The translations under genes were made by a program, and so were the position numbers. Of a DNA stretch of 64,000 bases, positions 17,668 through 29,308 are shown one piece after another. This DNA comes from Thermoplasmatales archaeon SW_10_69_26 (GTDB taxonomy: Archaea > Thermoplasmatota > SW-10-69-26). The stretch lies in assembly GCA_003009755.1 (NCBI GenBank), contig PXUB01000042.1, positions 730 through 64,729 on the forward strand, given 5' to 3'. Within the stretch, counting starts at the first letter, position 1. Every line of letters starts with the position of its first letter. Below the pieces are notes generated by a model. That model saw only the letters and a list, made by a program, of their open reading frames with translations, was not told the DNA's origin and did no database searches.

Positions 17668-17876
17668 CCGGCCCCGACGTCCACGCCTAGGCCCTCGCGG
17701 GCCTTCCCTCTCGCTTCTCTTTCCTCTGGTCCAGGACGTGGCCGAGGTGTACGACCGATGAGGTGCTCGGCCTCGACAGCGACCGTTACCGGGCCGCGTT
17801 CGTGTTCGACGAGCGATCGGAAGCTCAGGGCTTCGCTGATCAACATCTCCCCAGGTAACTCGCTCCCGCGACCCCC

Positions 17877-18273
17877 ATGGCGGCCCGCGGGCTCGCGGTG
17901 AGAGCGCGACGACTGCATGGTCCTCGAACGGATACGGCTCGTCAGAGCCGCACGAATCACGAGGAGCAAGCCGTTCGCGGGGCTGCATTGGCACATCGGG
18001 GCGCTCGTCTCGTGGTACGACGGTTCCCGCGAGATGGTCGTTGCTCGGCGCCGACCGTCGAGCGAGTCCGGCCCCCTTTTTGGGCCGGACGACTTACGAG
18101 GAGCGGGCCGGCCGGGACGGGGACACTCGTTTCCGCCGTGGGACGGTGGTCTCGTGGTATGACGGCTCCCGTGAGAAGACCGGTGTCGATCGTCCGGTCT
18201 TCGAGCGAGTACGGCTCGTCAGAGCCGTACGAATTACGAGGAGCTAGCTGTTGGCGGGTTGTATTCGCACGGC
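17877..18273 (+). repeat. Three tandem degenerate 5'-tRNA-Val copies with twin-hairpin inserts
   Basis: Units at ~17877, 17998 and 18140; inserts 18029-18093 and 18171-18233 sit inside the anticodon loop. Confidence 0.85.
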
Positions 18274-18345
18274 GGGGCGGTGGTCTAGTGGTATGACGGC
18301 TCCCTTACGAGGAGCAAGCCGCAGGTTCAAATCCTGCCCGCCCCA
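18274..18345 (+). tRNA. tRNA-Val(TAC)
   Basis: GGGGCGG/CCGCCCC-A acceptor, GCTCC-CTTACGA-GGAGC anticodon arm, GGTTCAAATCC T-arm. Confidence 0.95.
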
Positions 18346-18354
18346 TTCGTAGCA

Positions 18355-18471
18355 GGGCAGGATTTGAACTCTGGTTCAATCGCGAAGGGCCGGAGGCTAC
18401 GCGCGGTCCTTCGCGAGAGCCCGAACGCGCGTCGATAGGTGCAACGTTCGGGTGAAATCCTGCCCGCCCCA
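18355..18471 (+). repeat. tRNA-Val 3'-end duplication with twin-hairpin insert
   Basis: GGGCAGGATTTGAAC, GGTTCAA, two hairpins, then AAATCCTGCCCGCCCCA (identical to 18329-18345). Confidence 0.85.
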
Positions 18472-18833
18472 CTCGCCGCTGACTAAGCCGGCCCGTCTCC
18501 GTCCGCCACCGGGTCGCCTGCACGGGGTCTTGTCACCTCGGTGACAACGGAACTACTTTCGTCGTTCGCCATGGCGTTGAGGCAAGCGGTCGCGTCCGTC
18601 CCCCCAACACGTCCAACCCCCGTTCCTGCAACACCCCCGGACCGACTCCTGTGCTGTTCCTACCCCCGGGCGCGACCGCTTGTCCCCACCTTTCCCGTGA
18701 CCCAAGCTCCGACCAGCCGGCGGTGGGCCACCGCCGCTCGGAGGCGGCGGTCATGTGCCTGTCCGCCAAGCGGGAAGCTTAAGGGCGGAGGTCGGCTGTC
18801 CTCAACGCGCGGACCGCTTGCGTCCCGCAGACC

Positions 18834-18906
18834 AGCCCGGTGGTGTAGCGGCCAATCATTTCGGCCTTTGGAGCCGAATACGCAGGTTCGAATCCTGCCC
18901 GGGCTA
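18834..18906 (+). tRNA. tRNA-Gln(TTG)
   Basis: AGCCCGG/CCGGGCT-A acceptor, TCGGC-CTTTGGA-GCCGA anticodon arm, GGTTCGAATCC T-arm. Confidence 0.95.
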
Positions 18907-19583
18907 TGGGATCGAGGACCTGCTCCTCAGCCTCTCCCGTCGCCAGCGTCTCGCCAAGGCTGGCTGACGGTGTCGCGCTGCGTCGAAAGCCCGCAGGGGG
19001 ATTTCTTCCTCGCGCTCCTTGTCAGACAGCCTTGGCGCGGGCCCCGCCGGGCCCGCCCGGATGGGAGACGCTGGCTCGGTCCGAGGCATCGTCGCCGGTC
19101 CTCGGTCCCTGCGGATACCGCTGGTCGTCAGCGGGCAGGATGAGAACCGCAGGTTCGATCGTGAGAGCCGGTGGAAGAGCGGGCGGTTCTCACGAGCGGC
19201 CGAACCGGCGTCCACTGCTCGGTTCGGCCAGAATCCTGCCCGGGCTATACCGGTCGAGTCCTCGTTCCTCAGGTTCTCCCGTCGCGAGCACCTCGCCAGC
19301 CGCCGCTGACGGTGTCGCTCTGCTTCGGAAGCCCGCAAGGGGATTCCTGCATCGAGCTCCTTGCCAGCGACGGCTGGCGCGAGCTGAAGGCTCGCCCAAC
19401 GGGAGGTGCTTACTCGGTCCGAACACATCGTCACGAAGACTCGACCGGTGCTCCAATCGCGGATCGTAGAGGGCAGGATGAGAACCTTGGTTTGATCCCG
19501 AGGCGCGGTGTCGACCGCACGCGTCTCGGGAGCGGCCGAACCGGCGTTCACTGCTCGGTTCGGCCAGAATCCTGCCCGGGCTA
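18907..19583 (+). repeat. Two tandem ~340-bp structured units, each ending in the tRNA-Gln 3' end
   Basis: GAATCCTGCCCGGGCTAT at 18890, 19231 and 19567; the units are diverged but their stems co-vary. Confidence 0.9.
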
Positions 19584-19594
19584 TCCCTCCTACC

Positions 19595-20032
19595 TCACCA
19601 CACCTGGAACAGCAGGAAGTACACCGCGATCCCCATCACGATCGAGACGAGCCACATCGGGGCGACCTTGGTCGCCAACTGCCGGTGCTCGGTCCAGTGG
19701 CTGCGCATCGCGCGCAGGTACACGAAGGGGATGAGCACGATCGTGGCGACGGCCAACACCATGTGCGTGCCGAGGAAGGCGTAGTAGAAGGTGCTCGCCC
19801 AACCCGGTGCAGTGGGGTTCTGCGCGGCGAACGAGGTCGGGCCGTGGAGGAACATCCGGACGAGGTACAGCGCCAGGAACAGGCTGAACAGCGCTGTGGC
19901 TGCGATCATCAACTGCTTGTGCCGGTCCACGTTGCCTCGCCGGATCTCGTGGACGGCTCGCAGGATCAAGACCCCGACGACGGCCACGATGACCGTGTTC
20001 GCCGGCGGGATCGCGGCGATGAGGTCGACCAC
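19595..20032 (-). CDS. DUF420 family membrane protein
   Basis: HKQLM...FLALY...Y..FLGTHMVLA...HRQLA...WL.SIVMGIAVY pattern. Confidence 0.85.
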   Translation of the reverse strand: MVDLIAAIPPANTVIVAVVGVLILRAVHEIRRGNVDRHKQLMIAATALFSLFLALYLVRMFLHGPTSFAAQNPTAPGWASTFYYAFLGTHMVLAVATIVLIPFVYLRAMRSHWTEHRQLATKVAPMWLVSIVMGIAVYFLLFQVW

Positions 20033-20096
20033 GGATCGACCAAGCGGCCATGGCACAAAACCCTTAGCCGGACGCCGCCTCGGGAGGTTCGTCCCC

Positions 20097-20969
20097 GTGC
20101 GTGTCAGCTGGGTCCTGCTCGTCGCGTTGACAGCGTGCCTCGTGCCGGCCGCTCCGGCCCTGGCCCAGACGACCGGTTCGGCCTCCGTGGACCTGTCGCT
20201 GCCGACGCTGGCGGCGCCCGTCTCCCCGGCCGAGCCGCAGAACTCCTCGGTCACCGTCCGCTACGAGTGGAACGATGGGATGGCCGAGGACAACGTGACC
20301 GTCGACCTCTCCCACGTCGACGGACCGCCTTGGCTGAACTCCTCGTTCTCGCCGAGCACCGTCGAGTTCGACCTCGGCAACCAGGCCTCCGGGGTCGAGA
20401 CGCGCATCGTGAACGTGACCCTGGACGTGGCCTCCGACGCGACCGCCTACACCGAGGCCGAGGCCACCTACCGGGCCGAAGCCGAAGCCAGCGGCACGCT
20501 GCCGGCCGCCGAGATCGAGGAGAGCCTCGCGTTCGAGTCCGGGTTCGCCGGCCAGCTCGTCGCCGCCCTTCCTGAAGGCAACGTCACCGCCTGGGGCGGC
20601 CTCCGCCAGGAGGTCCCGATCGACCTCGAGAACACCGCCAACGGCCCGATCGAGGTCGACGTCCGCGTCGACCGCATCCCCGCCGACGCCCGCGGCACGC
20701 CGCCGGACGCGATCGTCCTCGGCCACGAACCCGGCAACGAGTCGACGACCGCCACGATGGAGATCCGGGTTCCCTGGAGCCTCAGCGTCGAGGGCCCGGT
20801 CGAGCTCGCGCTCGACGCCGCCCACGAGACCGAAGGCACCGAGCTGGACGACCGCCGGCTGGCCTTCACCCTCGACGGCCGAAGCGCCGTCCCCGTGCCC
20901 GGCCCTGGTCCCTGGATCACCCTGCTCGCCGCCGCGTTCGCGCTCGCCGTCCGGGCCCGCTCGAGATGA
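20097..20969 (+). CDS. Secreted Ig-like protein with PGF-CTERM-like anchor
   Basis: Signal peptide, beta-rich body, VPGPG-hydrophobic-RARSR tail. Confidence 0.75.
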   Translation: MRVSWVLLVALTACLVPAAPALAQTTGSASVDLSLPTLAAPVSPAEPQNSSVTVRYEWNDGMAEDNVTVDLSHVDGPPWLNSSFSPSTVEFDLGNQASGVETRIVNVTLDVASDATAYTEAEATYRAEAEASGTLPAAEIEESLAFESGFAGQLVAALPEGNVTAWGGLRQEVPIDLENTANGPIEVDVRVDRIPADARGTPPDAIVLGHEPGNESTTATMEIRVPWSLSVEGPVELALDAAHETEGTELDDRRLAFTLDGRSAVPVPGPGPWITLLAAAFALAVRARSR

Positions 20970-21139
20970 ACCACTCGAAGAAAGGGAACCTCGCCCCTGG
21001 GTCACAACCGCGGCAGAACCCGACAACCCTTATACCACCGGAAGGGCTACGACCGGCGGGATGGGATCGCGCACGGGGCCGATCGGCCGAGTTCCCCGAC
21101 TAGGGCCAGTGCGATCGATCACCCGTCGGTGGTGAGCGC

Positions 21140-23071
21140 GTGAGCATCGCGAACGAACTTGCAGACAAGCAACGAGACATCGCCGTCTCAGAGTTCTTCG
21201 AGCGGAACAAGCACATCCTCGGGTTCGACAACACGACCCGAGCCCTCATCACGAGCGTCAAGGAGGGCGTCGACAACGCTCTCGACGCCTGCGAGGAGGG
21301 CAACGTGCTGCCCGACATCCGCGTCGAGATCCACGAGGGCGACGACGACGAGTACACCCTCGTCATCGAGGACAACGGCCCCGGCGTCGTCAAGCGCCAG
21401 GTCCCCAAGGTGTTCGGCCGGCTGCTCTACGGATCGCAGTTCCACCGCATCCGGCAAAGCCGCGGCCAGCAGGGCATCGGCATCAGCGCCGTCGTCATGT
21501 ACGGCCAGCTCACCTCCGGCCAACCCGCCACCATCTGCACACGCGTGGGACCCGACCACCCCGCCTACGAGCTCGATCTCCGCCTCGACACGAAGGAGAA
21601 CGAGCCCGAGGTCGTCGACGAGGAGATCGTCGACTGGGACAAGGACTCCGGCACGCGGCTCGAGATCACGATGGAGGCCCGCTACGTCCGCGGCGCCCAG
21701 TCCGTGTACGAGTACCTGCGGACCACCAGCATCGTCAACCCGCACGCCGAGCTCACGCTCGTCGAGCCCGACGGGACGACGACGAAGTTCCCGCGCTCCA
21801 GCGAGCAGCTACCGCCCGAGACGGTCGAGATCAAGCCCCACCCGCTAGGCATCGAACTCGGCCAGCTGCAGGAAATGGCGAAGAACACCGAGGCCCGCAA
21901 GATCACCTCGTTCCTGCAGAACGACTTCTGCCGCGTCGGTCTGCAGACGGCCCGCAAGATCTGCGACAAGGCGGGCATCGGCGAGGACCGCAAACCCTCC
22001 TACCTGAAGACCGACGACTGCAAGGCTCTGATGTCGGCCTTCGAGGAGGTCCGCATCGTCTCGCCGCCGACCGACTGCCTGTCCCCGATCGGCGAGACCC
22101 TGATCCGCCGCGGCCTCCGCACGGAGTTCGAGGACGCCGACCTCGTCGCGACCGAGACCCGCTCGGCCGAGGTCTACGGCGGCCACCCGTTCCAGATCGA
22201 GGCCGCCATCGTCCACAACAGCGACAAGCTGCCGGACGACGAGCAGGTCGAGATCCTGCGCCACGCCAACCGCGTCCCGCTGCTGTACCAACGCGGCGGA
22301 TGCGTGTCCACGAAGGCGATCGAGGACATCGACTGGCGCCGCTACGATCTCGACCAGCGCGGCGGTCAAGGCATCCCGCACGGCTCGTGCGCGATCCTCG
22401 TCCACGTCGCCTCGACCAACGTCCCCTTCACCAGCGAGTCCAAGGACGCCGTCGCCGACATCCCCGAGATCCGCAAGGAGATCGAGCTCGCCGTGCGCGA
22501 GTGCGCTCGCGAGATGCGCTCGCAGATCCGCAAGGGCAAGAAGATGAAGCGCCTCCGGCAGAAGGAGGACATCATCCGCAAGATCGTGCCCGCGATGGCG
22601 GAGAAGAGCGCCCAGATCCTCGACAAGGACGTCCCCGACTACGAGAAGGCGATCGCGCGCATCATGAACGCCGTCATGGTCACGCCCACGATCGAGTACG
22701 AGCAGGGCGTTGGCCACGACATCACGATCGAGGTCCGCAACTACACCTCCCACGGCAAACGGATGCAGGTCATGGCCGAGCTCCCCGCCGAGGGCGACGT
22801 CGAGGACCCCGAACCCGACGCCGGCTACCGCGGCAACATGATCGTCTGGGACGAGGACAAGATCGACACCGGCGAAGCCCGTGAGTTCTCCTACCGCGTC
22901 CGCGGACTGGCCGAGGCCGACATCCAGAACGTCGACATCTTCCTCGACGGCATCGACGCCACGCTGATCGCCGGCGCCGAGGCCTGGGAGGGATCCGAGA
23001 TCGAGGAGACCGCCCCCGAGCCGCAGGAGATCGACGACGGTGACGAGGTCACCCAGGAGGTGCAGGTCTGA
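21140..23071 (+). CDS. top6B: DNA topoisomerase VI subunit B
   Basis: [56 protein letters not shown]. Confidence 0.97.
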
Positions 23072-24183
23072 TGTCGACGAACGGAGCCAGGTTGGAAGAC
23101 GCCGACCGCGAGACCCTCGAGGCCCTGTACGAGCTCGCGCACAAGATCTACGACGATCTCGAGGACGGCGATGTCCCAGAGCTCAACCTCCCGGTACGGT
23201 CGAAGTCCAACATCGAGTTCGACGAGGAGCACGGCGTCTGGAAGTACGGGGACAGCCAGTCCACCCGGTCGGCGAAGAAGACCGACGGCGCCAAGATGCT
23301 GCTGCGGACGACGTACATGATCGACTTCATCCGCGAGATGCTGGAGACCGACAAGTCCAGCACCTTGCGAGAGATGTACTACATCAGCGAGGGCTGGGAC
23401 CTCGCCAAGTTCTCCGACCAATCCGAGTCCGACAAGCTGGCCGAGGACCTCGAGGTCATCACCGAGTACCTCCGCGAGGACTTCCAGCTCCGCCCCGAGG
23501 AGGACGGCGCCCGCATCCTCGGCGACGTCACCGTCGAGGAGGAGACCCGCACCGGCGACACGCGCGTCATCAACTGCCAAGACGACGTCGGCGACGCCGG
23601 GTACTCGGTGCCCTACAGCGTCGAGGAGGACAAGCTGCGGTTCGTCGACATCGACGCCGACTTCATCCTCGCCATCGAGACCGGCGGTATGTTCGACCGG
23701 CTCGTCGAGAACGGGTTCGACGAATCCCACAACGCGCTGCTGCTCCACCTCAAGGGCCAGCCCGCCCGGTCGACCCGGCGCCTGCTCAAGCGCCTGAACG
23801 AGGAGTACGGCCTGCCGACGTTCGTGTTCACGGACGCTGATCCCTGGTCCTACCGCATCTACGCCAGCGTGGCCTACGGTGCGATCAAGACCGCCCACAT
23901 CAGCGAGTACCTGGCCACGCCGGCCGCTCAGTACCTCGGCGTGACCCCCAGCGACATCGTGAACTACGACCTGCCCACCGACGACCTCTCCGAGCAGGAC
24001 GAACGCGCGCTCAACAGCGAGCTGTCCGATCCCCGCTTCGACGACGACCAGTGGCGGGGCGAGATCGAGTTCCAGCTCGAGCTCGGGAAGAAGTCCGAGC
24101 AGCAGGCACTCGCGAAGTACGGTCTCGACTTCGTGACCGACACCTACCTGCCCGAGAAGCTCTCCGAGATGGGCGTGATCTAG
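23071..24183 (+). CDS. top6A: DNA topoisomerase VI subunit A
   Basis: [39 protein letters not shown]. Confidence 0.97.
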
Positions 24184-24317
24184 GCTTCTCGCGCCGCCCC
24201 CAGGACCGAACGCCCGCCGCGGGCGGAACGAGTGGCCACGCTGACGGATGCTCCGGGGGCCCCCGCCTGCGACCCGAACCGATTTCACGGCCCGCGCCCA
24301 TACCCACGTCGGTCCCC

Positions 24318-24713
24318 GTGCATCGCCGCCTCGTGCTGACGGTCGTCCTGCTTCTGGCGGGCGTGGCCGCGCCCGTCGCGGCCGAGCAGGGCGCTCGCAG
24401 CTGCCAGGTCGACGTCGGCGCCCCCTTCCTCCTCCTCGACAGCGGCGAGCGCGCCTCCCAGCGGGTTACCGTCGGCGGGTGCCAACTGGTGCACGACCTG
24501 GACGAGGCTTCGGTCCTCACGGAGGCCGAGCCCGGCGACTGGCCCGTCACCCCGTTGTCGCAGGATTGCCGGATCCAAGTGGACGACGACGGCGACGGTA
24601 GCGGGCTCACGACGGTCGAGCGCGGCGACGAGGTCCGGCAAGGCGCGGACCTTTGGGCCAAGTGCGAAGCCGGCGACCGTCTCGACAACCGGATCGAGCT
24701 CGCACCGACCTAG
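24318..24713 (+). CDS. Secreted 4-Cys protein (paralog A)
   Basis: Signal peptide; ends CEAGDRLDNRIEL. Confidence 0.7.
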   Translation: MHRRLVLTVVLLLAGVAAPVAAEQGARSCQVDVGAPFLLLDSGERASQRVTVGGCQLVHDLDEASVLTEAEPGDWPVTPLSQDCRIQVDDDGDGSGLTTVERGDEVRQGADLWAKCEAGDRLDNRIELAPT

Positions 24714-24780
24714 TTGTTGTCACGGGCCGCTGTGAGGTTCGATTCACCTTACCGGGCCAGCCTGGACTCCAGGGAGCACC

Positions 24781-25176
24781 GTGGGAGGAACCGCGCGAAC
24801 CGTGATCGGAGGACTGTTGCTGGTGGGCCTCGTCGGCTTGGTCGCTCCAGCGGCGGCGGACCAGGGAACGTTCGGATGCACCGTGCTCGCCGGCACCGAA
24901 GGGGGAGCCCCCGCAGGCGGCCCGATCGGTGTGTCGTCGACCGGCACCGGGCCCGGCATGGGCGAGTGCGAGATGCACACCCTCGAGAAGCGCTCCAGGA
25001 CCACGCAGATCGACGTCCCCGACGGGTGCCAGATCCACGCCGACACCGACGTGGATCTGTTCGTCGAGGAACGGGTCGGCGAGGACGAGGTCTACACCTC
25101 CGGCACGTCGATGATCGCCTTCTGCGAGGCCGGCATCGTCATGGCCGACAACCGCGTCTCGTTGGTCGACATCTGA
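24781..25176 (+). CDS. Secreted 4-Cys protein (paralog B)
   Basis: Signal peptide; ends CEAGIVMADNRVSL. Confidence 0.7.
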   Translation: MGGTARTVIGGLLLVGLVGLVAPAAADQGTFGCTVLAGTEGGAPAGGPIGVSSTGTGPGMGECEMHTLEKRSRTTQIDVPDGCQIHADTDVDLFVEERVGEDEVYTSGTSMIAFCEAGIVMADNRVSLVDI

Positions 25177-25229
25177 CGGACAACCGCCGAGCAACAACGC
25201 TTTTCAACCTACAGGCGCCCACGATATAC

Positions 25230-26642
25230 ATGCGACTCCGGTGGATCACTGCGGTTTTGCTCATCACGGCCGGGCTCACCGGCTGCATCGGCAACCTGGT
25301 CGACGGTGACGCGGCCGAAACCGCGTCGACGGACACCGAGATCGACGCGATCGCGCCCAGCGAGGAACCGCTGTTCGCGAACCCGCAGACGGCTCCGCAC
25401 CCCGCCTTCGACTACCCCACGTTCACCACGCTGTCCGACGACGAGGACATGCCCGAGCTGTGGGAACCGATCGACCCTGCCAGCTTCGACACCAGCGACC
25501 TCGAGCTCAACCACACCGGCGAGGACCCCGGCGACGCCGAGTACGGCAGCGGGATCGCCATCTTCGGCTCCATGGTCATCGTGCCCGGTCGATCCACCGG
25601 CTCCAGCTGGGTGTTCGACATCTCCGACCCAGAGAACCCCGAGCTCGTCAGCGAGTTCGGCGCCCCCGGCCGCGACGTCGACACCCTCGCCTTCCCCGAC
25701 GGGCGCCTGTACGCCGTCTTCGCCACCGACAGCGGCGTCGTGCCCGTCTGGAACCTCACCAACCCCGAGGACCCGGCCAAGGCCGCCGAGCTCGAACCCG
25801 ACCGCGGCTCCCACAACGTCGGCGTCGTCCCCGGCACCCCGTTGGTCTACAACAGCGCCGGCGCCGGCGGCGGCGACACCGGCCGCGTCGGTGAAGGGAC
25901 CGAGGGCACCGCCATCTACGACTTCTCCGATCCGGAGAACCCCGAGCTCGCGCAGGACTTCGAGAACGGGTACAGCTGCCACGACATCTCGTTCAGCATC
26001 CGCGAAAGCATGGACGAGTACCGCGCCTACTGCGCCGGCTACGACGTGACGCAGATCTGGGACATCGCCGATCCCGCCGACCCCGAGGTCATCGTCGACA
26101 TCCCGGTCCACCACGGCATGCCCGACGTACCCGCCACGTCCGCGACGCCCGCGCGCTTCAGCCACCTGGCTCTGGCCAGCAACGACGGCGACACGCTGAT
26201 CGTCGGCGACGAGACCGGCGGCGGCGCCGCGCCCGCGTGCGATGCTCACACCAGCATGGGGCCCCAGACCGCTTCCGGCCCGGTCGGCAACCTGTACTTC
26301 TACGACATCAGCGACGAGACCGACCCGCAGTTCCAGTCGATGCTCAGCCCGGACAGCCCCGCGCTGATGACCGACGAGATCCAGGACGACCCGAACCGCG
26401 CCACCGGGTCCTGCACCGCCCACTTCGGTCGCATCATCCCCGCCGAGGACCGCAACGTCCTCGCCATCGGGTTCTACGCCCGCGGCGTCAATCTGGTCGA
26501 CTTCACCGACACCTCCAACCCGGAGATCGTCGACCAGTTCAACGAGAACACCAACACCTGGGACGTCTGGTTCTACAACGGCTACCTCGTGACCGGCGAC
26601 ACCCAGCGCGGCATGGACATCTTCACCCTCGACGGCGGGTAA
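25230..26642 (+). CDS. LVIVD-repeat lipoprotein
   Basis: Lipobox LTGC; repeated xxDISDPENP units; CHDI and CTAHFG. Confidence 0.85.
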   Translation: MRLRWITAVLLITAGLTGCIGNLVDGDAAETASTDTEIDAIAPSEEPLFANPQTAPHPAFDYPTFTTLSDDEDMPELWEPIDPASFDTSDLELNHTGEDPGDAEYGSGIAIFGSMVIVPGRSTGSSWVFDISDPENPELVSEFGAPGRDVDTLAFPDGRLYAVFATDSGVVPVWNLTNPEDPAKAAELEPDRGSHNVGVVPGTPLVYNSAGAGGGDTGRVGEGTEGTAIYDFSDPENPELAQDFENGYSCHDISFSIRESMDEYRAYCAGYDVTQIWDIADPADPEVIVDIPVHHGMPDVPATSATPARFSHLALASNDGDTLIVGDETGGGAAPACDAHTSMGPQTASGPVGNLYFYDISDETDPQFQSMLSPDSPALMTDEIQDDPNRATGSCTAHFGRIIPAEDRNVLAIGFYARGVNLVDFTDTSNPEIVDQFNENTNTWDVWFYNGYLVTGDTQRGMDIFTLDGG

Positions 26643-26878
26643 CCCGTCGAGCTGAGCCGGCGGGGCCGAGGCCCTGCCGGACGGTCCCAAGCCAGCGGTC
26701 CCCACAGCCTTCGACCCGAACGAGGGTCCTGGCGATCGTAGGCCCTGGCCTGTTCGATTGGGCTCGGCCCCGCTTTCCGGTGACAGAGAGAACGAAGGAG
26801 AGGGCGCCCGGCTGGGGCCTTTCCAGAACCCCTCAGGAAGGTTTCCGTCACACCCACCCAATGATCGTGCCAGGCTGG

Positions 26879-27031
26879 TCAGTGGACGGAGTCGTGATCG
26901 ACGGCGACGCGCTCGTCCTCGTCAGGACTCTCCAGCAGGACCGGCTGCCCCTCCTCGTCGCGGTCCACGACCTCGTACCCGCTGTTCACCATGCGGGACG
27001 CGGTCAGACGACCGACGCTGCGGTCAGCCAT
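26879..27031 (-). CDS. Small hypothetical protein
   Basis: 50 aa acidic ORF with GGAGG upstream. Confidence 0.45.
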   Translation of the reverse strand: MADRSVGRLTASRMVNSGYEVVDRDEEGQPVLLESPDEDERVAVDHDSVH

Positions 27032-27192
27032 GCGACGCCTCCGGTTGCCCGATAACATCTCCCTGTTCATCAGACGATCGGTCGAGGGACTCGTTCACTT
27101 CGCCTAGCGTGTCCAGCGGCGAGTGGAGCCGATGAGGGGGTGTCGCCTCACCCCAGACATCGTTCGCCGTGCGGCTTGACCCCTGCGCAGCC

Positions 27193-27246
27193 CCGAAGGG
27201 AAAAGGTTTTTATAGAACTGCAAGGGCGGCAAAGACTTATATAGAA
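27193..27246 (+). promoter_or_regulatory. Tandem BRE/TATA boxes of the thermosome gene
   Basis: AAAAGGTTTTTATAGAA and AAAGACTTATATAGAA; the second lies ~30 bp before the ATG. Confidence 0.7.
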
Positions 27247-27270
27247 GCGGTGTTTTGGTTAGCGTAGACT

Positions 27271-28968
27271 ATGAGAGGAAAAGAGGGTCAACCGTTCATC
27301 GTGCTCGCCGAGGGCACGGATCGGAGCCAGGGCCAGAACGCCCAAAGCAACAACATCCAGGCTGCCCGAGCGATCAGCGACGCCGTTCGCTCCACGCTCG
27401 GTCCCCGCGGCATGGACAAGATGCTCGTCGACTCGATGGGCGACGTCGTCATCACGAACGATGGCGTCACCATCCTCAACGAGATCGACATCCAGCACCC
27501 CGCCGCGAAGATGATGGTCGAGGTCGCCAAGAGCCTCGAGCAAGAGGTCGGCGACGGCACGACCAGCAGCGTCGTGCTCGCCGGTGAGCTCCTCAACAAG
27601 TCCGAGGACCTGCTCAACGACGTCCACGCTACTCTGATCACCCGCGGTTTCAACCTGGCCGCCGAGCGCGCCCAGGAGATCCTCGACAACCTCACCACCG
27701 ACGTCGACGTCGATGACGACGAGCTTCTCGCGAAGGTCGCCCGCACGTCGATGGCCAGCAAGCTCTCCGGTGGCCACCTCGACACCTTGGCGCCCGTCAC
27801 CGTGGAAGCCATCCGCGCCGTCTCCCGTCAGCGCGACGGCAACGTCGTCGTCGAGAAGGACGACATCGGCTTCTCCAAGAAGACCGGCGGCAGCGTCGAG
27901 GACACCGAGGTCATCGACGGCCTCCTCCTCGACAAGGACCGCGTCCACTCCGGCATGCCCGAAACCGTCGAGGACGCCAACATCCTGCTGCTCAACAAGG
28001 CGATCGAGTTCGAGAAGACCGAGGTCGACTCCGAGATCCAGATCTCCGACCCCGACCAGCTCCAGGCGTTCCTCGACCAAGAGCAGGACGTCCTCGAAGA
28101 GATGGTCGACCAGATCGAGGCCTCCGGTGCCAACGTCGTCTTCTGCCAGAAGGGCATCGACGACGTTGCCCAGCACCTCCTGGCCCGCCGCGGCATCTTC
28201 GCCGTCCGCCGCGCCAAGAAGTCCGACATGCAGCGCCTCGAGAAGGCAACCGGCGCCCGCATCGTCAACAGCCTCGACGACCTCACCGAGGACGACCTCG
28301 GCACGGCCGGCCGCGTCGAAGAGCGCACCATCGGCGACGACACCTCCACGTTCGTCACCGGTGCCCCCGACGCCGAGGCCGTCAGCGTGCTGATCCGCGG
28401 CGGCACCGAGCACGTCGTCGACGAGGTCGAGCGCACGCTCGAAGACTCCATCGGTAGCGTGGCGGCCGCCCTCGAAGAGGGCAAGGTCGTCCCCGGCGCC
28501 GGTGCGACCGAGACCGAGGTCGCGCTGCGCCTCCGCGAGTACGCCAACACCGTTGGCGGTCGCGAGCAGCTCGCCATCGAGACGTTCGCCGACGCCATCG
28601 AGATCGTGCCCCGCACGCTCGCCGAGAACGCTGGCATGGACGCCATCCAGGTGCTCGTCGACCTCCGCAGCGAGCACGAGAACGGCAACAAGTCCACCGG
28701 CGTGCTCGTCGACGAGGGCGAGATCCGCGACGCCACCGCCGAGGGCGCCGTCGAGCCCCTCCGCGTCAAGACGCAGACGATCAAGTCGGCCGCCGAGGCC
28801 GCCACGATGGTCCTGCGCATCGACGACGTCATCGCCTCCAAGGGCGCCTTCGACGAGGACGCCGGCGGTCCGCCCGCTGGCGGCCCCGGCGGTCCCGGCG
28901 GCGGCCCGCCCGGCGGCGGCATGCCCGGCGGCATGCCCGGCGGGATGGGCGGACTTCCTGGGATGTGA
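27271..28968 (+). CDS. ths: Thermosome (group II chaperonin) subunit
   Basis: [30 protein letters not shown] and a GGM-rich tail. Confidence 0.97.
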
Positions 28969-29183
28969 ATCGGGTCAAGAGACGTCCGCCCAGAGACCGG
29001 ATCTTGGATCCGGTCGAATCTGGAGACCCGGTGCCGTTGATCGGGTCTCCAGCCGGGCGGACTCCCCGGCATGTGAACACCGGGTCAAGCCCAACCGGAG
29101 TCCGCCCAGAGGACGAGCCCGCCAGGGCTCGTCCGAATCTGGAGGTCGACATCACCGCGCGACCTCCAGCCGCGGACTTCCTG
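28947..29183 (+). repeat. Tandem duplications of the thermosome 3' end with twin-hairpin inserts
   Basis: GGGCGGACT.CC.GG.ATGTGAA at 28947 and 29055, GCGGACTTCCTG at 29172. Each unit is GTCCGCCC-AGA-hairpin-GAAT-hairpin-CC-target. Confidence 0.85.
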
Positions 29184-29308
29184 ACGTCACCGTAGGGCCG
29201 GCCCTCGGGCCGACCCCTTCCCTCTTCCTCCCTTTCTCTTCTCACGACCAGTCGCGGTGCTGTTCCGCCCGATGGCCTCTTTCGACGACCGCCGACGCCT
29301 TGCTCGGA

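Follow-up and report, generated by a model that had tools for sequence, protein, structure and literature searches.

Beside tRNA-Val(TAC), tRNA-Gln(TTG) and the thermosome subunit gene of Thermoplasmatales archaeon SW_10_69_26, in a 64,000-nucleotide (nt) stretch of contig PXUB01000042.1 (positions 730-64729 of contig C42 in the numbering used here; hereafter the window), parts of the genes are repeated in short non-coding units that carry pairs of hairpins. The cassette has the form spacer-X'-branched hairpins-X, in which X copies the last 11-51 nt of the gene and X' is a perfect reverse complement that covers the start of X and 4-7 nt lying deeper in the gene, an extension seen in 11 of the 11 units with an uninterrupted X'. 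The layout, and in ten units also the junction motif, is that of the RtT repeats at the tyrT gene of E. coli. The units are a variant of that kind, whose breadth over Bacteria and Archaea was unexpected; new are the twin-hairpin core common to different targets, the positions on the 5' side and in tRNA loops, and the protein-gene ends with silent changes. The reading favoured here, at a rough probability of 45%, is that the units are non-autonomous gene-end repeat cassettes of the RtT type, recombined into gene ends by an enzyme acting in trans.

Organization of the units in the window

All eight units that a first-pass annotation had reported at the three genes were found by sequence reading and folding. 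tRNA-Val is preceded by a remnant and two full units and followed by one unit, two lie on the 3' side of tRNA-Gln and two after the thermosome stop codon (Table 1). The downstream units consist of X', two strong hairpins with a joiner of 2-4 nt, and X, which is the order of reverse complement, hairpin, linker, hairpin and direct copy that the annotation had given for every unit. This order fails upstream of tRNA-Val, where the supposed reverse complement is the natural 5' strand of the anticodon stem, and where that stem forms the outer stem. In U1 and U2 a tRNA 5' half is followed by two hairpins and then by tRNA positions 31 or 32 to 42, so that a partial tRNA copy has the two hairpins in its anticodon loop.

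The two hairpins, termed alpha and beta, have stem bases of the ..GAGA.. and G.ACG types, respectively. The X'/X helix that closes the downstream units measures 9-11 bp in the three units at tRNA genes and 8-9 bp in the thermosome units. The two units behind tRNA-Gln are each ~340 nt long and alike in layout, with a long imperfect-hairpin module ahead of the core; the two copies of this module are 76% identical over 131 nt. The module is akin to stretches on at least eight other contigs of the genome (for example C43:7548-7648, 86%) and in genomes of the same family. A related module of ~100 nt was seen between tRNA-Glu end copies at C1:114150-114600.

Table 1 Units and target genes in the window (window coordinates).
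Feature	Position	Strand	Components and basis
Val-upstream remnant U0	17921-17986	+	Hairpin 17935-17950; tRNA-Val positions 34-48 copied at 17959-17973
Val-upstream unit U1	17998-18104	+	Diverged tRNA-Val 5'-half copy; hairpins 18041-18065 and 18066-18090; GAC; 18093-18104 = tRNA-Val positions 31-42
Val-upstream unit U2	18140-18244	+	tRNA-Val positions 5-31 at 18144-18170; alpha 18175-18202; beta 18209-18230; GAA; 18234-18244 = tRNA-Val positions 32-42
Val-downstream unit	18355-18471	+	X' 18355-18369, complementary 15/15 to tRNA-Val positions 52-66; small hairpin 18366-18377; alpha 18380-18416; GA; beta 18419-18453; X 18455-18471 = positions 56-72
Gln unit 1, long imperfect-hairpin module	18907-19131	+	~225 nt
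Gln unit 1, core	19132-19247	+	X' 19132-19141; GAGAACC-GCA-GGTTCGA; alpha 19159-19195; GC; beta 19198-19229; X 19231-19247 = tRNA-Gln positions 57-73
Gln unit 2, long imperfect-hairpin module	19248-19470		Second copy
Gln unit 2, core	19471-19583	+	X' 19471-19479; GAGAACC..GGTTTGA; alpha 19496-19531; beta 19534-19565; X 19567-19583
Thermosome unit 1	28984-29076	+	Order beta-alpha: X' 28984-28991; beta 28995-29015; GAAT; alpha 29020-29052; CC; X 29056-29076 = last 7 codons
Thermosome unit 2	29097-29191	+	X' within 29097-29105; beta 29111-29134; GAAT; alpha 29139-29169; CC; decayed third gene-end copy from 29171
tRNA-Val(TAC), target gene	18274-18345	+	ARAGORN, Rfam
tRNA-Gln(TTG), target gene	18834-18906	+	ARAGORN, Rfam
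Thermosome subunit gene, target	27271-28968	+	Ends ..GGLPGM-stop; Pfam Cpn60_TCP1, E 2e-180

The assembly (G000) comprises 2.82 Mb in 49 contigs at 69% GC and is 95%-complete. The presence of thermosome and TFB genes identifies the host as an archaeon. The Atlas clusters closest to the thermosome are archaeal, and DNA of the window is also present in halite metagenomes.

Genome-wide occurrence and controls

Comparison of k-mers between the 57 predicted tRNA genes and their own flanks revealed direct and inverted partial copies at periods of ~110-130 nt beside many of the genes. Automatic parsing returned 33 rows, and removal of four that were judged to be chance (palindromic words or coding DNA) left 29 X'-core-X units at 17 tRNA genes. 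Overall, units occur at no fewer than 17 of the 57 tRNA genes and at five or more protein genes. Two arrangements were recognized. Arrangement A reads X'(..GGAT)-GAGAACC or TCGAACC-loop-GGTTCGA-alpha-GA-beta-GAA-X(ATCC..), and arrangement B, X'-GA-beta-GAAT-alpha-X, belongs to protein genes and to the very 3' ends of the tRNAs for Gly and Leu. Where units precede a tRNA gene (Ser-TGA, Arg-TCG, Arg-CCT), they are mirror images, which fits a DNA-level process that handles both gene ends alike. The hairpin pair is also seated inside the D, anticodon or T loops of partial or whole extra tRNA copies (Ser-TGA, Leu-TAA and one genome of the same family). Copies far from the gene are more decayed, as in thermosome copy 3, Leu-TAG unit 3 and Arg-TCG unit 3, and the tandem units at Gly-TCC differ at 2 of 79 core positions. 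A run of N at C25:104215-104243, masked or unassembled, separates tRNA-Met from its unit.

Twin hairpins with an outer stem of at least 8 nt form 62 clusters in the genome and 6 in a dinucleotide-Markov genome of equal size; for hairpin pairs that bear both stem-base motifs the corresponding numbers are 117 clusters and, in the reversed genome, 6. After merging there are 81 module loci, and 18 of them have a tRNA gene no more than 400 nt away, where 1.4 would be expected. The units are neither products of chance nor confined to the window. Logan contigs from a run of a separate study contain 17687-18193 of the window at ~97% identity, so the Val-upstream units are not an assembly artefact.

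Other scans discriminated less. A loose search for hairpin pairs (stems of at least 8 nt, G-U allowed) returned 2725 clusters and is uninformative at 69% GC, and the beta-hairpin motif scanned alone gave noise. The X-X'-X triple scan, with 185 matches against 17 in the control, served for candidates only, many matches being self-complementary coding words. Flanking inverted repeats were found at 11 of 75 merged module loci and at 24 of 375 random places, in a comparison in which the merging of arrays hid most units. A metagenome scan with the thermosome gene end gave no match; with the tRNA-Val 3' end it gave 20 loci, all in unrelated low-GC organisms and none with a unit. A scan of viral contigs for the junction motif described below returned seven stretches.

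Covariation and shared hairpin cores

In an alignment of 16 units of arrangement A, compensatory changes occur at 12 of 18 consensus pairs, so that the hairpin sequences vary while their pairing is kept. A covariance model built from these 16 units, R1, matches 61 places in the genome at E <= 0.1, the 16 training sequences included. The Val-downstream unit and Gln unit 1, both training sequences, score 84.4 and 90.3 bits, and the hairpin pair of U2 is matched at 31.7 bits (C42:18900-18962, contig numbering). R1 has matches in 6 of the 21 genomes of the class (E <= 1e-5) and in 7 of 151 genomes sampled across the phylum. This distribution marks the twin-hairpin variant as restricted to a lineage, with its highest copy number in the present genome.

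The cores of units at different tRNA genes are homologous. Those at Leu-TAG and Leu-CAG agree at 63 of 74 positions and those at Arg-CCT and Gln-TTG at 64 of 77, and 77 of 475 inter-locus core pairs score above the best of 400 shuffles. Cores are thus up to 85% identical between targets while the X'/X flanks follow the local gene, which indicates retargeting. The first-pass annotation had proposed from the window that the units form a single non-coding multi-hairpin family with target-derived flanks, that pairing outlasts sequence in the hairpins, that the family recurs beyond this locus and that it is retargeted. The 29 parsed units and the R1 matches, the compensatory changes, the excess of clusters over both controls and the core common to different targets agree with these proposals, and the structure-model scan that it had recommended for the genome and its relatives gave further matches in both.

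Units behind protein-coding genes

Behind the TFB gene on C22, the last 51 nt (NRYKELAEKLDIDIIL and stop) are repeated after X'-beta-GAA-alpha, and both of the two changes are silent. The three changes in the second thermosome gene-end copy are likewise all silent. Silent-only changes imply divergence of one of the copies at a time when it served as coding sequence. A gene of 356 amino acids on C19 is followed by five 90-nt single-hairpin units and one of 662 amino acids on C14 by one 85-nt unit, and at a gene of 309 amino acids on C31 X' abuts X through a 1-nt loop with no hairpins between them. The T-arm junction motif is missing from the protein-gene units.

At C3:21931-22358, a tandem array of four units, each of 115-118 nt and made of a beta-alpha hairpin pair and a conserved spacer, was observed within or behind long open frames. 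Away from tRNA genes, scattered arrays, each of three to five hairpins with the alpha and beta stem bases, occur at C8:11862-11917, C9:35503-35640, C32:73778-73915 and C13:8450-8506; no gene-end copy was found beside these four arrays.

Relationship to the RtT repeats

Since the late 1970s RtT has stood as an isolated oddity of a single E. coli operon. In E. coli K-12, the tyrV-tyrT region reads X-58 nt-GGGGAAGGAT-GAGAAGC..GGTTCGA-hairpins-X three times over, with an X' of 10 nt; GGGGAAGGAT pairs with ATCCTTCCCC. The junction of these repeats, GGATGAGAA.C..GGTTCGA, is that of the units described here, and the consensus of Rfam RtT (RF00391) includes the motif GGAUGAGAAcC..GGUUCGA. The motif GGATGAGAACC..GGTT(C/T)G has ten matches in the archaeal genome, all in units behind tRNA genes, both tRNA-Gln units among them, while the Val-downstream unit carries the unaltered reverse complement GGATTTGAAC in its place. 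In the annotation, the E. coli small RNA RttR (rttR) stops precisely where the copied CCA end does. Of 5426 complete E. coli genomes, 4741 have RtT repeats, at 1-14 places in each.

The units here, like RtT, stand directly behind a tRNA gene and in tandem, and begin with an X' complementary to the copied tRNA end. The downstream tRNA units share with RtT a terminal tRNA 3'-end copy that starts in the T loop (AATCC..), and the Gln units share the junction GGAT-GAGAA.C-loop-GGTTCGA followed by two to four hairpins. The copy number of RtT differs between strains. The tRNA-3'-end placement of RtT is that of the Val-downstream unit and both Gln units; the thermosome units, with a protein-gene target, and the Val-upstream units, on the 5' side, depart from it. 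The archaeal core, in contrast to that of RtT, is a fixed pair of long GC hairpins with stem-base motifs of their own, the targets number at least 17 tRNA genes rather than one, and the positions extend to the 5' side, to anticodon and D loops of partial tRNA copies and to the ends of protein genes.

At its gathering threshold Rfam reports the two tRNAs only in the window, with no RtT match. When E-value thresholds were used, RtT aligned over its full length (model positions 1-130) with window positions 19457-19586, that is with Gln unit 2, at 18.1 bits, with an Arg-TCG unit at 17.8 bits and with a betaproteobacterial unit at 25.1 bits. Given the shared motif and layout and scores below 45 bits, the units are of the RtT kind but not members of the family by the Rfam threshold.

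The first-pass annotation had called the units undescribed and had set tyrT/rtT aside as an explanation. Both statements have to be withdrawn, since the 178-bp tyrT repeats of E. coli have the layout X-spacer-X'-hairpins-X and the same junction, and since the RtT model aligns with the units along its whole length. A full match to a described family, which it had named as a possible refutation, is found as regards length and motif and falls short as regards score. What stands of its interpretation is that the family is non-coding and retargeted and that its enzyme is not encoded here, and the novelty is reduced to that of an RtT-kind variant.

Units of this kind are widespread. A strict scan of species genomes for the junction motif gave at least 120 stretches, mostly bacterial, with other archaea also represented. 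In 80 of these loci there are 97 matches, of which 82 lie less than 1 kb behind a tRNA gene on the same strand, most commonly a tRNA-Ser; in 58 of the 82, at least 10 nt of the tRNA tail recur within the next 260 nt, and the complementarity of X' amounts to 4-12 nt. Tandem arrays are common at the motif loci elsewhere. In the literature on haloarchaeal miniature inverted-repeat transposable elements, att hairpins and RtT/tyrT, no description of the class beyond E. coli rttR was found, a statement that extends to the available portions of PMC13107129, bioRxiv 10.1101/2024.07.17.603846 and PMC3318445.

Proposed origin and alternative explanations

In the favoured reading, a cassette would recombine into the terminal segment of a gene, whose end would be rebuilt while a second end copy was left on the far side of the cassette. 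In single-stranded form, X' would pair with X, and the branched fold could thereby mimic a double-stranded target and act as the recombination substrate. Exchange of a single strand between the gene and a folded single-stranded circle (X-spacer-X'-core) would give the order X-spacer-X'-hairpins-X, and arrays may have grown through further insertions beside the gene and through unequal crossing-over. The enzyme would act in trans. If the cassette were co-transcribed with its gene, its RNA could take the same fold and have a tRNA-like 3' end, in line with the annotation of RtT in E. coli. The units may fold as DNA or as RNA, both of which fit, and the word cruciform used in the first-pass annotation is an assumption. 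Among the runs listed as containing this stretch none is recorded as RNA, and the antisense or decoy RNAs that the annotation had put forward as an alternative would be a conjectural reading. Insertion is favoured over purely local duplication because of the silent-only changes, the decayed distal copies, the shared cores and the mirrored 5'-side units.

Several observations weigh against this reading. The families Y1_Tnp (PF01797), TnpB zinc ribbon (PF07282), RVT_1 and Cas1 have no match in the 95%-complete assembly, and Phage_integrase has only three, in ordinary islands at tRNA-Gly, tRNA-Phe and tRNA-Glu; with no candidate gene beside the units either, the annotation was right that the enzyme is not encoded here. 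Logan contigs, which as contigs are silent on excision and on expression, show neither filled/empty polymorphism nor a circle junction, and no joint inside the arrays is present among the Logan contig matches listed. A genome of another genus in the same family (G005) has a decayed homologue behind tRNA-Gln, so units can be old and vertically inherited. The silent-only differences could also have arisen if homologous recombination with a diverged strain had later exchanged the functional gene end, and compensatory changes in perfect palindromes can stem from intrastrand correction with no selection on the fold. That the junction motif persists from E. coli to archaea speaks for an RNA-level constraint, or for dependence on the universal T-arm sequence, as much as for mobility, and many bacterial units lie behind a terminator-like hairpin. 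Finally, all RtT matches here are under the 45-bit gathering score of Rfam, and R1 scores the E. coli repeats at just 12-13 bits.

The main rival, which is judged somewhat unlikely, is a local fold-back origin coupled to an RNA function. Fold-back or template-switch errors at heavily transcribed gene ends would give X-spacer-X'-X and unequal crossing-over would give arrays; the hairpins would have been retained as a useful co-transcribed RNA, for example one that serves 3' processing or stability and has a tRNA-like end. The C31 unit, in which X' and X are joined by a single nucleotide, speaks for this origin, and near-identical tandem units, as at Gly-TCC, together with the variable number of RtT places per E. 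coli genome, suggest recent duplication. The targeted genes are strongly expressed, conservation of the motif spans domains, and RttR is annotated as a small RNA with its end at the copied tRNA 3' end. The four enzyme families without matches and the confinement of Phage_integrase to ordinary islands also speak for a local origin. It leaves unaccounted for, however, the homologous cores that stand between target-specific flanks at different targets, the silent-only changes in copied codons and the mirrored 5'-side units, which would be antisense in the tRNA transcript. The terminator-like hairpins that separate tRNA gene and unit in many bacteria also count against this rival.

Scars of islands integrated by a tyrosine integrase, with the X copies as attL and attR cores of internally deleted viruses or plasmids, are improbable. 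Direct repeats of tRNA 3' ends are a hallmark of integration according to the available portion of bioRxiv 10.1101/2022.07.05.498093. The genome does contain integrase genes that adjoin tRNA genes, three in number, and a 14-nt copy of the tRNA end marks the limit of the 13.7-kb island at tRNA-Phe. Random deletion is not expected to produce X' or a fixed size of 85-125 nt, however, and one small core is common to more than 20 different targets. The units, of 85-340 nt, contain no integrase open reading frame, E. coli tyrT has the same layout without an island, and at tRNA-Phe the units lie beyond the far end of the island and have a junction (T loop) that differs from the island junction. The att duplications and cis-mobilisable remnants left by tRNA-integrating islands resemble the units in the rebuilt gene end with a second copy downstream and in the use of T-loop or anticodon-loop sites of tRNAs. 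The units differ from them in their length of ~100 nt, the lack of an integrase, the inverted X', the single core for many targets and the occurrence at protein genes.

The three integrase genes lie directly beside tRNA-Phe (C19:58919-72742), tRNA-Gly(CCC) (C2:33058-37633) and tRNA-Glu(CTC) (C1:107702-123009). Direct repeats of the tRNA end are 13.4-13.7 kb away at tRNA-Phe and 8-15 kb away at tRNA-Glu, and tRNA-Gly(CCC) has inverted end copies only, at ~4.4-4.5 kb. These loci look like ordinary integrated islands, one of ~13.7 kb.

Still less probable are terminal-only derivatives of IS200/IS605, which would have kept the left and right end hairpins and inserted as single strands into dispensable tRNA-like hairpin loops. 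Haloarchaeal PATEs have two near-terminal palindromes and include terminal-only forms of 52 bp, as described in the available portion of PMC3119063, and the insertion points of the units are always hairpin loops (D, anticodon, T or the X'/X hairpin). PATEs and SMR of haloarchaea, like REP/BIME and REPIN of bacteria, are short non-coding intergenic hairpin-pair repeats with many copies per genome, as are the units. These repeats have constant ends and no target duplication, the latter stated for PATEs in the portion of PMC3119063 that is available, whereas the units always carry X and X'. The Y1 transposases and TnpB without matches in the assembly, and RAYT transposases, which were likewise not found here, speak against such a derivation, as does the lack of a constant target oligonucleotide, TTCGA, TTCAA, CTCCC and TTTCC having been seen by reading.

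Archaeal tRNA introns at non-canonical positions in paralogous tRNA genes are very improbable: one genome of the same family (locus L006) does have a full extra copy of tRNA-Val and its upstream region with hairpin inserts in the D and T loops, but most units flank gene fragments only, two cases inspected by eye gave no consistent bulge-helix-bulge (L006 showed one possible central helix of 4 bp, Gln unit 1 none), and protein-gene targets and E. coli do not fit. A hammerhead ribozyme, whose core C3/U4 and GAAA are absent by eye, and a C/D box RNA, whose D box is absent by eye from most units, were rejected, as was casposon or CRISPR-like integration, Cas1 not having been found in the assembly and the length of X varying from 11 to 51 nt.

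Comparison with other systems and significance

Integron attC sites and the attP(+) hairpin of the CTX phage are recombination sites formed by a folded single strand. Like the units, they consist of an imperfect inverted repeat that closes a variable, sometimes branched centre, with structure kept while sequence varies, and integration of a folded single strand in their manner would yield the observed order X-spacer-X'-core-X. The paired arms of the units, unlike theirs, are copies of the target gene and not a constant core site, and the branch leaves the helix at the junction rather than at the tip. The attC site has R''/R' core sites (RYYYAAC / GTTRRRY) and is served by the IntI integrase; the tyrosine recombinases found here are the three generic Phage_integrase matches, from a survey that made no IntI-specific search. 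Tandem inversion duplications, of direct-inverted-direct order, arise by snap-back replication. They match the units in the order X...X'...X and in having junctions at short palindromes such as the T-loop TTCGAA, and they do not predict a conserved hairpin core inserted across loci.

A wider reading, rather speculative at present, is that RtT-like cassettes are tiny gene-less mobile elements that span the domains, for which the fold-back imitation of the target by X' and X would provide the recombination site; a host or helper recombinase could then retarget them to any conserved gene end, protein genes included. The E. coli tyrT repeats would in that case be one fossil of the class. The RtT layout and motif are now seen downstream of tRNA genes in archaea as well as in many bacterial phyla, the family has grown to dozens of copies in one archaeal lineage, and the hairpin core has moved between targets that include the 3' ends of essential protein genes. 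RtT thereby becomes a testable system, either of non-coding DNA that spreads by rebuilding gene ends or of a widespread structured RNA at tRNA and mRNA 3' ends. In practical terms, partial tRNA copies confuse tRNA gene finders and the units break assemblies. Over-long or undetermined tRNAs were called by ARAGORN on several contigs of this genome (for example C32:122460-122555, C39:7126-7222 and C33:5486-5580), and some of these odd calls are judged either spurious, as can happen in GC-rich DNA, or due to partial copies.

Other repeats

A second hairpin-pair repeat with conserved flanks has at least seven copies, at C2:143-197, C45:108-162, C36:251-307, C32:106759-106815, C35:19193-19250, C36:11735-11793 and C1:126069-126124. 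Three copies lie at contig ends, and the repeat is probably a multi-copy element that breaks the assembly. In a genome of the same class and another family (G007), the first 10-12 nt of tRNA-Gln are repeated five times upstream of the gene, ~75 nt apart and with AT-rich stretches (L007, G007:C11, 1176-1437), which looks like a different 5'-side repeat. An AT-rich repeat with GAAAATTTCC occurs in both orientations at C5:5283-5674, C22:11922-12088 and C43:26991-27114 and is conspicuous at 69% GC.

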